Assembly: GCA_019241645.1 (NCBI GenBank)
Contig: JAFAWQ010000017.1
Span: 1,973-65,972, forward strand
DNA: 64,000 bases
Reading direction: 5' to 3'
From: Alphaproteobacteria bacterium
GTDB lineage: Bacteria > Pseudomonadota > Alphaproteobacteria > Micropepsales > Micropepsaceae
Below, piece after piece: positions 35,861-39,880 of the stretch; within the stretch, counting starts at the first letter, position 1; every line of letters starts with the position of its first letter. The notes under the pieces are model-generated. The model saw nothing but the letters and a program-made list of their open reading frames with translations. It was not told the origin of the DNA and did not search any database. A program made the translations under genes and the position numbers.

Positions 35861-36040
35861 TCAGGCCTTGCTCCACTTGCCCTTGTGGATGTCGAACTTC
35901 ACCTTTCCCGCCGCCCGCATGCGCAGCAGCAATTCCTGCAGGCCATCGGTGTTTTTGTTGCTGGGATCGAGCCGCTGCTGCAGCGGGTAAAGGGCGCGCG
36001 GCTTGTCCAGTGCCGCCAGCACTTCTTCTTCCTTGATCAT
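35861..36040 (-). CDS. Small winged-helix-like hypothetical protein
   Basis: 59 aa MIKEEEVLAALDKPRALYPLQQRL..LQELLLRMRAAGKVKF..GKW; GGGAGA SD 9 nt upstream; follows pdeM on the same strand. Confidence 0.65.
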   Translation of the reverse strand: MIKEEEVLAALDKPRALYPLQQRLDPSNKNTDGLQELLLRMRAAGKVKFDIHKGKWSKA

Positions 36041-36099
36041 GACCGATGTTCTCCCAGGCCCTTTCGTCATTATGGCGCCGATGCAACGCCAGAGGAAGC

Positions 36100-36753
36100 T
36101 CAGGCCGCGACGGCGTACACGCGTGCGCGGCCGAGAACGTAGGCCAGGAACCTGTCGGCGAAGAGCGAGCGCAGCGGCCGTTCGCGCACATCGAGGCCGC
36201 CGGTGTAGGCGCCGAAGGCCGGCAGTACCATGCGATGTCCATCCGAAGCGAAGCAGCGGGCGCGAATAGAGCGGCCGCGCCGCGTCACCTTCGCGCAGGG
36301 ATGCAGGTGCCCGGCAATTTCGCCTTTGGCTGGATGAGGCGAGGGCAGGTGGCGGAAGATCAGTCCGCCGATGGCGATTTCCGAGGTGACAAAGCCGCCG
36401 AGCCACGTGGGTGGATGCGGATCGTGATTGCCTTCAATCCAGATCCATTCTGTGTTGTAGCCGAGTTCGCGCAGCACTGTGCGTTCGTTTTCATCCAGTC
36501 GGTTGGCGGCATCGCGGTCGTGGAACGAGTCGCCGAGCGCGATGATGCGTTCGGAAGTGTAGTGCTGCGCCAGCGCCGAGATGCGCGCCAGGGTGGAGCG
36601 GGTGTCGTATGGCGGCAGCAATTGTCCGCCGCGCGCGAACGACGACCCCTTTTCGAAATGCAGATCGGCGAACACCAGCGTGCGTTCCGCCGCCCACCAT
36701 AACGCTCCGGAGGGATGGAGTATCAGCTGCTCGCCATTGACGTTTAGCTTCAC
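36100..36753 (-). CDS. pdeM: Ligase-associated DNA damage response metallophosphoesterase
   Basis: ADLHFEKG, PPYDT, LGDSFHD, GNHD, RH and GHLHP motifs; GTG 36753 after GGGGGAG. An in-frame extension to 36966 is possible. Confidence 0.92.
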   Translation of the reverse strand: MKLNVNGEQLILHPSGALWWAAERTLVFADLHFEKGSSFARGGQLLPPYDTRSTLARISALAQHYTSERIIALGDSFHDRDAANRLDENERTVLRELGYNTEWIWIEGNHDPHPPTWLGGFVTSEIAIGGLIFRHLPSPHPAKGEIAGHLHPCAKVTRRGRSIRARCFASDGHRMVLPAFGAYTGGLDVRERPLRSLFADRFLAYVLGRARVYAVAA

Positions 36754-36777
36754 CTCCCCCAACGCGGATTCTTGGTT

Positions 36778-36896
36778 CCTCCCCTGCGAAGCGGGGGAGG
36801 GGGACCACGCGAAGCGTGGTGGAGGGGGCGAAAGCGGCGCGACAACTGCGCCCCCCTCCCCGCTTTCGGCGGTACTCCCCCCGTAAACGGGGGGAG
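36778..36896. repeat. ~119 bp alphaproteobacterial palindromic element (CIR/RIME-like MITE)
   Basis: Four hairpins in mirror layout: CCTCCCC..GGGGAGG, ACCACGC-GAA-GCGTGGT, then GGAGGGGGCG, an 18-nt core, CGCCCCCCTCC, CCGC-TTTCG-GCGG and CTCCCCCCG-TAAA-CGGGGGGAG. Confidence 0.8.
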
Positions 36897-36987
36897 AGCC
36901 ATTACTCGATACGTTCCGACCTCCCGGAATAGGGGGAGGTAAGACGTTGGTCGCATCCTCGCTCACGCACTAAACTCCATACCAGAA

Positions 36988-37028
36988 TTCCCTCTCCCCC
37001 TCTGGGTGAGAGGGTTAGGGTGAGGGGG
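36988..37028 (+). repeat. Left palindromic half-repeat of cassette
   Basis: TTCCCTCTCCCCCTCTGGGTGAGAGGGTTAGGGTGAGGGGG; inverted counterpart of 37331-37376. Confidence 0.85.
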
Positions 37029-37320
37029 ATGCCTTTTCCTCAATAGCCTTCGCTTCGCTCTCGCTCCCAGCGCCGTAAAACGTGCAGCCGCGATTGGGCG
37101 CTTTCGGAATTTCAAAGACGCTGATTCGCCACCCCTGCTCAACCTTCAGCGACGATAGCGGACCTAACCGCTGTCTCTCAACGTCTTTGCGTACAATCTT
37201 TATCGCCTTTGCAGCCCCACTCTCCTGATCGCGCGCCCAGCACCACCGAGTTGTGTAGAAGCCCACGATTCCATTCCGTATATTTCCAGTTCCATGAACT
37301 CTGAATCGATAGAACGACAT
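37015..37320 (-). CDS. Orphan hypothetical protein inside repeat-bounded cassette
   Basis: 101 aa with GFYTTR..A...A..GCTFY pattern; visibly more AT-rich than the flanking lhr and pdeM; stop codon lies inside the left repeat. Confidence 0.7.
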   Translation of the reverse strand: MSFYRFRVHGTGNIRNGIVGFYTTRWCWARDQESGAAKAIKIVRKDVERQRLGPLSSLKVEQGWRISVFEIPKAPNRGCTFYGAGSESEAKAIEEKASPSP

Positions 37321-37330
37321 TTCGTCGCGT

Positions 37331-37376
37331 CACCCCTCACCCCGACCCTCTCCCCCACTTCGTGGGGGCGAGGGAG
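37331..37376 (-). repeat. Right palindromic half-repeat of cassette
   Basis: Reverse complement CTCCCTCGCCCCCACGAAGTGGGGGAGAGGGTCGGGGTGAGGGGTG; starts 2 nt after the lhr stop. Confidence 0.85.
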
Positions 37377-37378
37377 AT

Positions 37379-39880
37379 TCATTTTTTCTCTTCCATACGC
37401 ATCGCATCCGCAATCAAAGCCTCTTCCGCTTCGCGCAGGATATCCTCATGCGCTTCGCCGGCCACCATTTCCTTTGCAATCGCAAGCAGCGCCGGAACCG
37501 CAAGCGGCGAGACGCGATCCAGTAGCTTTGCCACGATTCGCCCCTTCACGCGCCGCAGCGCTTCCGATAGCCGCGCGATGTCGAGCAGGCCATGCCCGGC
37601 GTCCTCATACGTGGCGCGCAGCAGGATGTGATCCGGCTCGTGCTCGCGCAGCACGTCATAGATCAGGTCGGAGGAGAAGGTGACCTGTCGCCCCGTTTTC
37701 TCCTCGTTCAGCCCGCGCCGCTGGATGAGGCCGGAAACAATCGCGCAGTTGCGGAAGGTGCGTTTGTAGAGCGCCGATTCCGCCAGCCACGCATCCAGAT
37801 CGTCACCCAGCATGTCCTCGTCGAACAATTTGTCCATGTCGGCGCCGCCCAGGTCGCGCAGGGCCCAGATGGCAAGCGCGTATTCATTGGCGACGAAGCC
37901 CAGCGGACGCAGGCGCAGCCGCTCCAGCCGGCGCGTCAGCAACATTCCCAGCGTTTGGTGCGCCAGCCGCCCTTCGAAAGGATAGCAGACGAGATAGTGC
38001 TTGCTGCCGCGCGGGAATGTTTCCACAAGCAGCTGGTTGGGGGAGGGAATGATCGAGCGCCATTCCTGGATCTTCAGCCATTCGCCGACCGGCTCGGGGA
38101 GCGCGCCCCACATCTTCGGGTTCGCCAGCATCTCGCGCACGCGACGAGCGAGAAAGGTGGAGAGCGGAAATTTGCCGCCATTGTACGACGGCACTTCCGC
38201 TTCCGGATCCTGGGTGCGCGTGACATAGGCGGCGTTTTCGCGAATGCCTTCGAAGCGCAGCACATTGCCGGAAAAAACGAAGGTATCTCCCGGCGCCAGC
38301 TGCTCCAGAAAATACTCTTCCATATGTCCCAGCACGCGGCCTCCCGCACCCACCGGCCGGCCTTTTCCCTGCAGCTTGATGTCCAGCATTGGCTCTTCGA
38401 CGATGACGCCGGCGTTCAGCCGGTATTGCTGGGCGATGCGCGGATGCGAGATGCGCCACTTGCCGTCGCTCATGCGGCGCAGCTTGGCGTAGCGGTCGTA
38501 GCGCTTCAGCGCATAACCGCCGGTGGCGACGAAATCGAGCACACGATTGAAGGTGTCCCTGGTCAGCGCGCGATAAGGCGCAGCGGTCTTCACTTCGCGA
38601 AAGAGCGCATCCGCATCGAACGGCGCGGAGCACGCCATGCAAAGAATGTGCTGCGCCAGCACATCGAGCCCCCCGCGGCGCGGCGGATCGCCGTCGAGCT
38701 CGCCCGCCAACACGGCGTCGCGCGCCGCTTCGCACTCCAGCACCTCGAAGCGGTTGGCGGGAACGAGAATGGCCTGCGAGGGCTCATCCAGCCGGTGATT
38801 GGCCCGGCCGATCCGCTGCACGAGGCGCGCGGCGCCTTTCGGCGCGCCCACGCAAATAACCTTGTCCACCGCGCCCCAGTCGATGCCGAGATCGAGCGTG
38901 GAGGTGCACACCACCGCGCGCAATTGCCCGCGCGACATTGCGGCTTCGACCTTGCGCCGCTGCTGCGGCGCGAGGCTGCCGTGATGCAGCGCGATGGCGA
39001 GATTGTCTTCGTTGATGCGCCACAGCGCCTGGAAGGTGCGCTCGGCCTGCGCGCGCGTGTTGACGAAAACGAGCGCGGTGGTGGAGGCGCGGATCGCCGC
39101 CATCACATCCGGCATGGCGTGGTAGGCCATGTGCCCGGCCCATGGCACATAGGATTCCGAAGCGATCACTTCGATGTCCGGCCTGGCGCCGGCTCGCCCA
39201 ATCACCAGCGCTGACTTCGCTTCCCCAATCGGCGGCTGCGGCGCGAGGTAGTGCTGCAGCGGCGCCGGGTCGGCGACCGTGGCCGACAAGCCGATGCGCC
39301 GGTGCTTCGCGGCGAAGGTTTGCAGGCGCGAAAGGCCCAGCGCCAGCAATTCGCCGCGCTTTGTGTTGATCATCGCGTGCAACTCGTCCAGCACCACCGT
39401 CTTCACCCGCGCGAACATGCGCTCCGCGTCGCGATGCGACAGGAGCAGCGAGAGCTGCTCCGGCGTGGTCAGCAGAATGTCCGGCGGGGAATATTTCTGG
39501 CGCTGACGGCGCGAGGCGGGCGTGTCGCCGGTGCGCGTCTCGATGCGGATGTCGAGGCCCATCTCCGCCACCGGCATTTCGAGATTGCGCGCGACATCCA
39601 CCGCCAGCGCCTTCAGCGGCGAAATGTAGAGCGTGTGCAGGGCGCGGGCGCGCGACCGCTTCGGCGTCTGGGAAATCTCGATCATGCTGGGCAGAAAACC
39701 GGCCAGCGTCTTGCCGCCGCCGGTTGGCGCCACCAGCAGCACGGATTCCCCCCGTCGTGCGTGATTGAGCAGCGCCACCTGGTGCGCCCGCGGTGTCCAC
39801 CCGCGCGCCGCGAACCAATCCGCGAAACGCGGAGGCAGCCCCGCGCTGTGGAGGATTGCGGTTGGGAGGACCACGTTCAT
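37379..39880 (-). CDS. lhr: Ligase-associated DNA damage response DEXH helicase (Lhr-core)
   Basis: APTGGGKT, SPLKAL, TTPE, DELH, HHGSL, TSTLDLGIDW, QRIGRANH. Confidence 0.95.
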   Translation of the reverse strand: MNVVLPTAILHSAGLPPRFADWFAARGWTPRAHQVALLNHARRGESVLLVAPTGGGKTLAGFLPSMIEISQTPKRSRARALHTLYISPLKALAVDVARNLEMPVAEMGLDIRIETRTGDTPASRRQRQKYSPPDILLTTPEQLSLLLSHRDAERMFARVKTVVLDELHAMINTKRGELLALGLSRLQTFAAKHRRIGLSATVADPAPLQHYLAPQPPIGEAKSALVIGRAGARPDIEVIASESYVPWAGHMAYHAMPDVMAAIRASTTALVFVNTRAQAERTFQALWRINEDNLAIALHHGSLAPQQRRKVEAAMSRGQLRAVVCTSTLDLGIDWGAVDKVICVGAPKGAARLVQRIGRANHRLDEPSQAILVPANRFEVLECEAARDAVLAGELDGDPPRRGGLDVLAQHILCMACSAPFDADALFREVKTAAPYRALTRDTFNRVLDFVATGGYALKRYDRYAKLRRMSDGKWRISHPRIAQQYRLNAGVIVEEPMLDIKLQGKGRPVGAGGRVLGHMEEYFLEQLAPGDTFVFSGNVLRFEGIRENAAYVTRTQDPEAEVPSYNGGKFPLSTFLARRVREMLANPKMWGALPEPVGEWLKIQEWRSIIPSPNQLLVETFPRGSKHYLVCYPFEGRLAHQTLGMLLTRRLERLRLRPLGFVANEYALAIWALRDLGGADMDKLFDEDMLGDDLDAWLAESALYKRTFRNCAIVSGLIQRRGLNEEKTGRQVTFSSDLIYDVLREHEPDHILLRATYEDAGHGLLDIARLSEALRRVKGRIVAKLLDRVSPLAVPALLAIAKEMVAGEAHEDILREAEEALIADAMRMEEKK

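Follow-up and report, generated by a model that had tools for sequence, protein, structure and literature searches.

How does a small gene come to lie between two inverted repeats, exactly where two genes of an operon would normally touch? The question is raised by a locus in a 64,000-nucleotide stretch of contig JAFAWQ010000017.1 (assembly GCA_019241645.1, an alphaproteobacterium of the family Micropepsaceae), the whole of which is called here the window. At this locus a 101-codon open reading frame (ORF), P0001, separates lhr from pdeM. A preliminary description, made from the letters alone, saw in it a single gene packaged between palindromic half-repeats, and proposed that such halves capture and move small genes in the manner of integron cassettes. 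The observation is confirmed, as the ORF and the two GC-rich repeats that face each other between lhr and pdeM are all in the sequence with the features described, while the first interpretation is partly supported. The reading that we favour, with a probability of about one half, is that of a “loaded” doublet of BoxC/TMECO repeats with a genuine small gene at its center, the gene having entered a doublet at the operon junction, such doublets being hot spots for insertion. A BoxC doublet that bears a gene other than a nuclease gene is new relative to the known repeats.

A small gene between two BoxC/TMECO units

Along the minus strand come, in turn, lhr, the upstream repeat, a spacer, the ORF, the downstream repeat in the opposite orientation, a stretch with ATGGAGT, a second doublet of another repeat family, and pdeM. 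The central features are these:

37333–37374, minus strand: upstream BoxC/TMECO unit (C-block 37374–37364, loop, G-block 37356–37346, TCG loop, third G-block 37343–37333)
37321–37332, minus strand: spacer of 12 nt from the GAGGGG of the third block to the ATG
37015–37320, minus strand: 101-codon gene P0001, of a small alpha/beta protein family with the motifs MPFYRF.IHG, GFYTTRW and APNRG.TFY
36990–37028, plus strand: downstream BoxC/TMECO unit (C-block 36990–37000, G-block 37004–37014, TTA loop 37015–37017, third G-block 37018–37028)

Each unit is built of three blocks, a C-run and a complementary G-run that make a hairpin, then a second G-run (GGGTGAGGGG). The left, downstream repeat (36990–37028) reads CCCTCTCCCCC-TCT-GGGTGAGAGGG-TTA-GGGTGAGGGGG, and the right, upstream one (37333–37374) reads CCCTCGCCCCC-ACGAAGT-GGGGGAGAGGG-TCG-GGGTGAGGGG as its reverse complement. 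Their inverted likeness had been put at about 34 of 42 positions by eye; it holds, with a computed value of 33 identical columns in an alignment of 43. As RNA, the hairpin of the upstream unit has a folding energy of -29.5 kcal/mol (z -2.4). This design is that of the BoxC/PIT elements, which are said to have been described by Bachellier and colleagues in 1999 and by Hoyne and colleagues in 2000.

Membership in the BoxC/PIT/TMECO group rests on a pyrimidine block, a complementary purine block and a mirroring second purine block, with short loops and a length of 34–37 nt (Holder et al., 2015; PMC4666352). Both window units have this block structure and a similar sequence, and the family is multi-copy, intergenic and often arranged in inverted pairs. 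Table 1 of that paper gives Escherichia coli K-12 copies such as CCCTCGCCCCTCTGGGGAGAGGGTTAGGGTGAGGGG; the downstream unit is identical to nos. 6 and 22 at 35 of 39 positions, and the upstream unit to nos. 3, 6 and 22 at 33 of 42. Because of this identity to published E. coli copies, the half-repeats can be assigned by sequence to a known kind of element rather than to a new family, and the earlier comparison with CIR, RIME and BRU-RS palindromes gives way to BoxC/TMECO. The resemblance covers the three-block design, a nearly identical sequence, the intergenic position, the inverted pairing, and both local variability and decay of units. It extends to the loops, TTA being that of type A while TCG resembles the CCG of type B; in E. 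coli K-12, inverted pairs occur at five sites, each combining a type A with a type B unit (PMC4666352). Conservation of these repeats extends from E. coli as far as the cyanobacteria. In vitro, the TMECO motif folds into an intrastrand triplex; its copies are all intergenic, no mobility gene lies nearby, and its origin and mechanism are unexplained (PMC4666352). What sets the Rhizomicrobium pairs apart is that they enclose whole genes and that their loaded units differ between genomes, whereas PMC4666352 describes no genes at the centers of pairs.

The enclosed ORF is AT-shifted, as had been noted: its GC is 0.54, against 0.61 for the window, and its GC at third codon positions (GC3) is 0.58, against 0.81 in lhr and 0.76 in pdeM. 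A chance open frame in the spacer between two repeats would suit this low GC, as it would the absence of any Pfam or NCBIfam family matching P0001 and the lack of a strong Shine-Dalgarno sequence at normal spacing. Against it stand relatives in 32 clusters at 50% identity (full HMMER scan) with invariant motifs, their occurrence in unrelated genomic contexts, and ratios of nonsynonymous to synonymous divergence (dN/dS) of 0.04–0.22 among eight alleles. The family alignment combines conserved motifs with a variable acidic tail, and the six close relatives are 60–82% identical. The AlphaFold2 model, a beta-beta-alpha-beta-beta-alpha arrangement, is confident (pLDDT 87.7, pTM 0.76); a fold search of the PDB gives no significant match (best E 0.09, TM < 0.5). 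The idea of a spurious frame is effectively refuted, and the doubt whether the ORF is conserved at all is lifted: P0001 is a genuine gene under purifying selection. It is not a disguised nuclease, as P0001 has no PF04480 match, hhalign against the DUF559 profile gives a probability of 0.2%, and no Vsr-like structure is among the fold matches.

The eight alleles (that of the window and those at loci L001, L004–L008 and L012) also show how far the repeats serve the gene. It had been claimed that they supply the stop codon and probably the Shine-Dalgarno sequence. The TAA (37015–37017) does lie inside the left repeat, on the strand opposite the TTA loop that joins block 2 to block 3, but a stop within the repeat is found in two of the eight alleles only, the window (TAA) and L001 (TGA); in L007, L008 and L012, the gene ends before the repeat. 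At the other end, the ATG does follow the GAGGGG of the right repeat, at 12 nt and not 11. The usual Shine-Dalgarno spacing is 5–9 nt. Since the distance is 12–16 nt among the alleles, with an unconserved spacer, and since the L004 gene does without the repeat, a Shine-Dalgarno role for the upstream unit is doubtful. Apart from the terminal codons and stop that they give to the gene in two lineages, the repeats are probably incidental to P0001 translation. In L001 (812–871), it is lhr that reads into the upstream unit and stops at a TAG in its loop, so that the helicase C-terminus gains EPNKEFPSPPRGERG. A role of the hairpins as terminators is rejected, because the promoter and terminator scan gave no terminator-like site; its one weak promoter-like site is within the ORF.

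Inverted doublets and what they enclose

A profile search over the 2.87 Mb of the window's own genome (G000) finds 13 full units, namely six inward-facing pairs (one of them split over two contig ends) and one solo unit, plus one bare hairpin. The window pair is the only one that encloses a gene. For a wider census, exact coordinates of the third-block motif were collected in G000, G095, G119 and G149 (139 sites), and sites within 2.5 kb were paired. Among the 50 close pairs, 47 face inward, two outward, and one has both members on the same strand; because of this bias, the inverted doublet is a structural unit and not two chance neighbors. Most inward pairs (36 of 47) enclose 135 bp or less (20–135 bp, with a mode at 92–97 bp), and the other 11 enclose 195–1820 bp. 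A DUF559 gene (PF04480, E 1e-31 to 1e-36) occupies four of these 11 long pairs, and a fifth DUF559 gene stands in tandem with that of one pair; the lhr-pdeM locus itself accounts for two more, one in G000 and one in G095; and the rest, one each, hold a 150-aa ORF (c150), an 83-aa ORF (c83), a mini-ORF with a SEC-C motif, a 431-aa ORF (c431), and no evident ORF. All cargo genes have a low GC3, 0.56–0.64 against 0.76–0.81 in resident genes. Inverted BoxC doublets can hold whole genes, then, the DUF559 nuclease being the commonest occupant and unrelated small genes being found as well. A further genome, G019, contains some 28 inward-facing pairs, all of them unloaded.

Counts of third blocks (“tails”) in 61 congeneric genomes range between 0 and 106, with 0–4 per strand for reversed-motif controls. 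In G102 and G110, the GGGTGAGGGG block occurs 67 and 106 times, mostly in outward pairs 165–290 bp apart, an architecture that differs from the inward doublets of G000, G095 and G019. The SEC-C mini-ORF is at L061:43–361 (G119 C12), in an inward pair enclosing about 300 bp, and bears the motif GRNDPCPCxSGKRYKNCC. All six loaded pairs of G095 are on one 381-kb contig (C15:42751–189246; L054–L058 and L012), three of them within a gene-transfer-agent (GTA)-like cluster.

The DUF559 genes bear on whether the repeats are the ends of something that moves. The preliminary description had supposed a nuclease encoded elsewhere, and DUF559 is indeed the usual occupant of the pairs, with five such genes inside the window's own BoxC family in G095 and G149. 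Their units have the same ends and architecture as that of the window, and those at L057–L060 have window-type ends; in the window too, inverted three-block ends directly abut a gene, but the gene between them is not DUF559. G000 has five DUF559 genes (C47:91840–92262, C47:109091–109486, C31:14574–14921, C2:1459–1800 and C6:15587–15976), each lying between inverted three-block repeats of a sequence variant peculiar to it. The window's BoxC family flanks none of the five, and the window contains none of them. A search of the literature found no description of DUF559 genes paired with repeats. As for the suggestion that repeat density should follow nuclease genes, DUF559 copy number does correlate with tail count (Spearman 0.44, p 4e-4, 61 congeneric genomes, uncorrected for kinship and completeness), while RAYT, another enzyme proposed, is absent from G000.

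One whole unit differs between two genomes. The c150 unit, of 753 nt, lies in the GTA-like cluster of G095 and is absent as a whole from the orthologous site of G000 (C33:81428/81435), where two consecutive genes overlap by the stop of the first and the GTG of the second. Its cargo is co-directional with the operon, and the target junction is of the same type as lhr-pdeM. Some extra non-homologous bases lie outside the ends of the unit. At two neighboring junctions of the cluster, where G095 has units of the BoxC family, the doublets of G000 belong to the second repeat family and hold no gene (C33:85076–85239 and 88732–88878); these junctions are therefore occupied repeatedly. No counterpart of the L054 and L058 flanks was found in G000.

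Such data allow a different reading, in which BoxC units are non-autonomous ends and a nuclease acting in trans, most plausibly DUF559, moves the whole [BoxC-gene-BoxC] unit into tight junctions. In its favor, DUF559 genes at several loci and other small ORFs have the same ends on either side, the c150 unit is either there entire or missing at a junction where stop and start overlap, the empty lhr-pdeM sites are equally tight, the six loaded pairs of G095 share a contig, and the copy-number correlation, in which phylogeny is uncorrected, points the same way. But the key prediction is lacking, as no cargo other than DUF559 was seen with BoxC ends at more than one locus. No target-site duplication was seen, and extra non-homologous bases lie outside the ends; G000 has no DUF559 gene flanked by the window's BoxC family; and genomes without any DUF559 gene still carry 5–26 tails. 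We regard this reading as unlikely. Its widest form, in which BoxC doublets, acted on by a DUF559 nuclease, serve a gene-insertion system that places the nuclease gene and unrelated small ORFs, such as P0001, c150, c83 and the SEC-C ORF, precisely into overlapping operon junctions, is equally doubtful; if true, it would be a miniature cassette system without an integrase, and would give a function to a repeat family unexplained since the 1990s. In either case, loaded units that appear or disappear whole at the tightest operon junctions offer a testable handle on whether doublets are a hot spot or a vehicle for gene gain.

The relatives of the cargo genes weigh against transport by the repeats as well. 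It had been asked whether homologues of the 101-aa protein are repeat-flanked at other loci; all the examined P0001 relatives at other loci, including the distant ones, are without BoxC. They lie behind a CitE-like lyase gene, behind a DUF2905 gene and before argG, or overlapping another gene. One relative (56% identical) has its start 3 nt past the end of a gene for an IS1-family-like transposase (L066:1622–2746; NF033558, E 3e-20, below the cut-off), and another (50% identical) is set between 41-nt direct repeats that are 90% identical and 640 nt apart (L068:375–415 and 1015–1055). The latter adjoins an Arc-like mini-gene, in a layout that is cassette-like in a different way. The close and more remote relatives of c150 (75%, 68% and 33–41% identity) are likewise at other loci without BoxC, and only an 89%-identical one has the same GTA site. 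Because their relatives occupy varied loci without BoxC, P0001 and c150 are itinerant small genes, found within BoxC pairs only in this Rhizomicrobium group and at one locus each. That the repeats ferried P0001 from locus to locus is less likely than its entry at the center of a doublet.

Empty and loaded alleles of the lhr-pdeM junction

Twenty-three congeneric (Rhizomicrobium) loci that hold both lhr and pdeM were compared. In 20 of them, the distance from where the lhr match ends to where that of pdeM begins does not exceed 49 nt, and overlap of stop and start is frequent (for example GTTGACTGA). Most of the genus thus shows the unloaded state, with the lhr stop abutting or overlapping the start of pdeM; the two genes are normally adjacent, as had been supposed, and empty alleles can be set beside loaded ones. 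The P0001 gene is found in only two of the same-genus genomes sampled and on six metagenome contigs. All eight alleles have the order lhr-ORF-pdeM, and a tree of the flanking genes groups them with 100% bootstrap; loading is restricted to this one monophyletic subclade of Rhizomicrobium, and always to the lhr-pdeM locus. No second copy of P0001 was found in G000. Synonymous divergence (dS) of P0001 is 0.4–2.7, against 0.5–1.1 for the flanking genes. From the proposal that the halves capture and move genes, what survives is the pair as a unit with varied cargo and one whole-unit difference between genomes; mobility of the window unit does not survive, since all eight alleles are at lhr-pdeM, single-copy, and comparable to their neighbors in dS. 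P0001 probably entered once and has since been inherited vertically, and its unit today would be an old fixed relic, co-transcribed in the lhr-pdeM operon, rather than an active cassette. The value of the window copy is that of a comparative example, not of an active element.

The state of the repeats varies among the alleles. Both BoxC units are intact in five of the eight (the window, L001, L007, L008 and L012, the last from G095), and they are partly decayed or lost in the other three: L006 has a full upstream unit with at most a likely remnant downstream (TGACCTAACTCGCTCCCC), L005 has degenerate repeats on both sides, and L004 has no BoxC-family unit, its ATG lying 2 nt after the lhr stop. 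Among the window, L008 and L012, whose lhr genes have a dS of 0.6–0.8, the upstream unit is near-identical, loop ACGAAGT included. Conservation of the repeat blocks so far beyond that of neutral sites implies constraint or homogenization. The L012 allele of P0001 (L012:1501–1767) is only 56% identical to that of the window over 82 codons, with family-invariant motifs altered (GFYAARSC, KPSDRG), and the flanking proteins of G095 and the window are 96% (Lhr) and 89% (PdeM) identical; relaxed constraint or allele replacement could account for this divergence.

Which state is the older one depends on where L004 falls. The preliminary description would have been undermined by a relative with the same ORF and no repeats, and L004 is such a relative, but the flank tree, with the window at its base, places L004 beside L001, which has both repeats (93% support), and so suggests secondary loss. 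Because of this pairing, parsimony leans towards the presence of both repeats in the ancestor of the clade, followed by loss or decay. The view that the repeats were inserted after the gene, to which L004–L006 could lead, does not count as proven, given the flank tree and the likely remnants in L005 and L006.

The same alleles raise the possibility that P0001 arrived by an unrelated route and that two BoxC units landed beside it later and independently, their inversion being a coincidence or the result of a bias towards gene ends. This would fit L004, where the start of the gene is coupled to the lhr stop as in distant relatives, and L006, where a full unit is present on one side only. It would also fit the repeat-free members of the P0001 family elsewhere, and a locus that behaves as a magnet for repeats, with its second doublet before pdeM in both the window and L004. 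In G124, moreover, a 336-aa secreted beta-propeller-like gene lies between lhr and pdeM on the opposite strand, without BoxC (L047:371–1504); since this genome holds another gene there, the junction has been invaded more than once. Yet independent flanking insertions are unlikely, because solo units are rare, pairs are overwhelmingly inward, and the pattern recurs: the coincidence would have to be repeated for each DUF559 gene and for c150, c83 and the SEC-C ORF. For a family of 13 units in a genome of 2.87 Mb, it is very improbable that two would have landed independently in the canonical orientation at a distance of 305 bp, and L004 falls among the repeat-bearing alleles in the flank tree. 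We give this explanation little credence, as little as we give to transport by a nuclease.

Under the preferred reading, that of a gene which entered a doublet, a BoxC doublet would first have sat at the lhr-pdeM junction. The center of such a palindrome would be a hot spot of breakage or instability, perhaps cut by a DUF559 nuclease, and repair of a break with captured foreign DNA would have placed the P0001 gene at the center. This may have occurred once, in the ancestor of the clade, with vertical inheritance and slow decay of the arms thereafter. The raised local variation at TMECO loci, and the deletions within palindromic pairs, count in favor of doublets as hot spots (PMC4666352). The locus shows one way in which a foreign small gene can enter a DNA-repair operon without breaking it.

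Several points weigh against entry into a doublet. The cargo ORFs fit rather tightly between the arms, which random capture of DNA does not predict. The L004 gene, 2 nt after the lhr stop and with no BoxC-family repeat, could represent the ancestral state; its grouping with L001 rests on about 1.4 kb, and recombination could blur the flank tree. The second doublet before pdeM, common to the window and L004, conflicts with that tree. No allele with an empty BoxC-family doublet at lhr-pdeM, the proposed intermediate, was found, and the comparison of filled and empty sites in G095 and G000 revealed neither a target-site duplication nor sharp element ends.

Known systems and the surrounding features

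Three known systems invite comparison with the loaded doublet. Doublets of repetitive extragenic palindromic (REP) sequences, or REPINs, are reportedly mobilized by a REP-associated tyrosine transposase (RAYT), as is said in the work of Nunvar in 2010 and of Bertels and Rainey in 2011. The likeness is close: short GC-rich hairpins mainly in inverted doublets, conserved beyond their neutral flanks, with a candidate enzyme gene between repeats. BoxC units differ in having a third block, and their candidate enzyme has a PD-(D/E)xK fold, not that of the HUH enzymes. To our knowledge, REPINs do not carry cargo genes. The REP/REPIN-RAYT reading is rejected, as G000 has no match to PF01797, a profile that does match in 7 of 13 related genomes and in six control genomes.

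An integron cassette resembles the unit in being a single promoterless small ORF that is bounded by structured repeats and co-directional within an expressed array or operon. A cassette has one attC, in direct orientation, whereas two inverted repeats surround the ORF here; and the window unit has no attI, Pc, array or sign of reshuffling. Searches for the integron integrase (TIGR02249) in G000 and G095 gave only sub-threshold Xer-like matches, of at most 74.5 bits against a cut-off of 265 bits. The integron-like part of the preliminary description, and with it the cassette reading, is rejected on the grounds of the two inverted repeats and of an integrase that nowhere reaches the cut-off in these genomes.

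Miniature inverted-repeat transposable elements (MITEs) and palindromic elements can donate coding sequence or signals to genes, as Correia elements and the Rickettsia palindromic elements do; MITEs by definition carry no gene. Terminal inverted repeats and insertion at gene boundaries are common to these elements and to the window unit, and the donation is similar too, the repeats giving C-terminal codons and stops to P0001 (window and L001) and to lhr (L001). The MITE reading is rejected, as there is no target-site duplication in the sister-unit comparison, a cargo gene is present, and no matching insertion sequence or related transposase was found.

The features around the loaded doublet are as follows:

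37379–39880, minus strand: lhr, upstream neighbor, ligase-associated DNA damage response DEXH-box helicase (TIGR04121, 1110 bits, cut-off 850)
36974–36980, minus strand: ATGGAGT leader remnant, in a stretch of about 20 nt between the downstream BoxC unit and the second doublet
36778–36966, no strand assigned: second doublet, without a gene, of another three-block repeat family (CCTCCCC..GGGGAGG plus a GGGTGGGGGG-type block)
36100–36753, minus strand: pdeM, downstream neighbor, ligase-associated DNA damage response endonuclease (TIGR04123, 232 bits)

The lhr product has Pfam matches to DEAD, Helicase_C, WH_Lhr and DEAD_assoc, and the lhr stop (37379–37381) lies 2 nt past the end of the repeat as first drawn. 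An Rfam search of 36000–38000 gave two sub-threshold chance matches and nothing more. The TIGR04123 match begins at residue 75 of the maximal, 288-aa pdeM ORF, and alignment with the sister alleles suggests a start at the GTG at 36753–36751. In L001, L005, L006, L007, L008 and L012, pdeM is preceded by a leader, ATGGAGTA(C/T)G..GTG, with a GGAG Shine-Dalgarno sequence. In the window, the second doublet separates the ATGGAGT remnant of this leader from pdeM, and the last hairpin arm of the doublet apparently donates GGGGGAGGTGAAG, a Shine-Dalgarno sequence together with the GTG start. The pdeM start differs between alleles, the six sisters using ATGGAGTA..GTG and the window apparently the start donated by the doublet. 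A doublet of the second family also precedes pdeM in L004, in the same place as in the window. Elsewhere in G000, this family flanks DUF559 genes at C31 and C6, and occupies junctions of the GTA cluster at C33.

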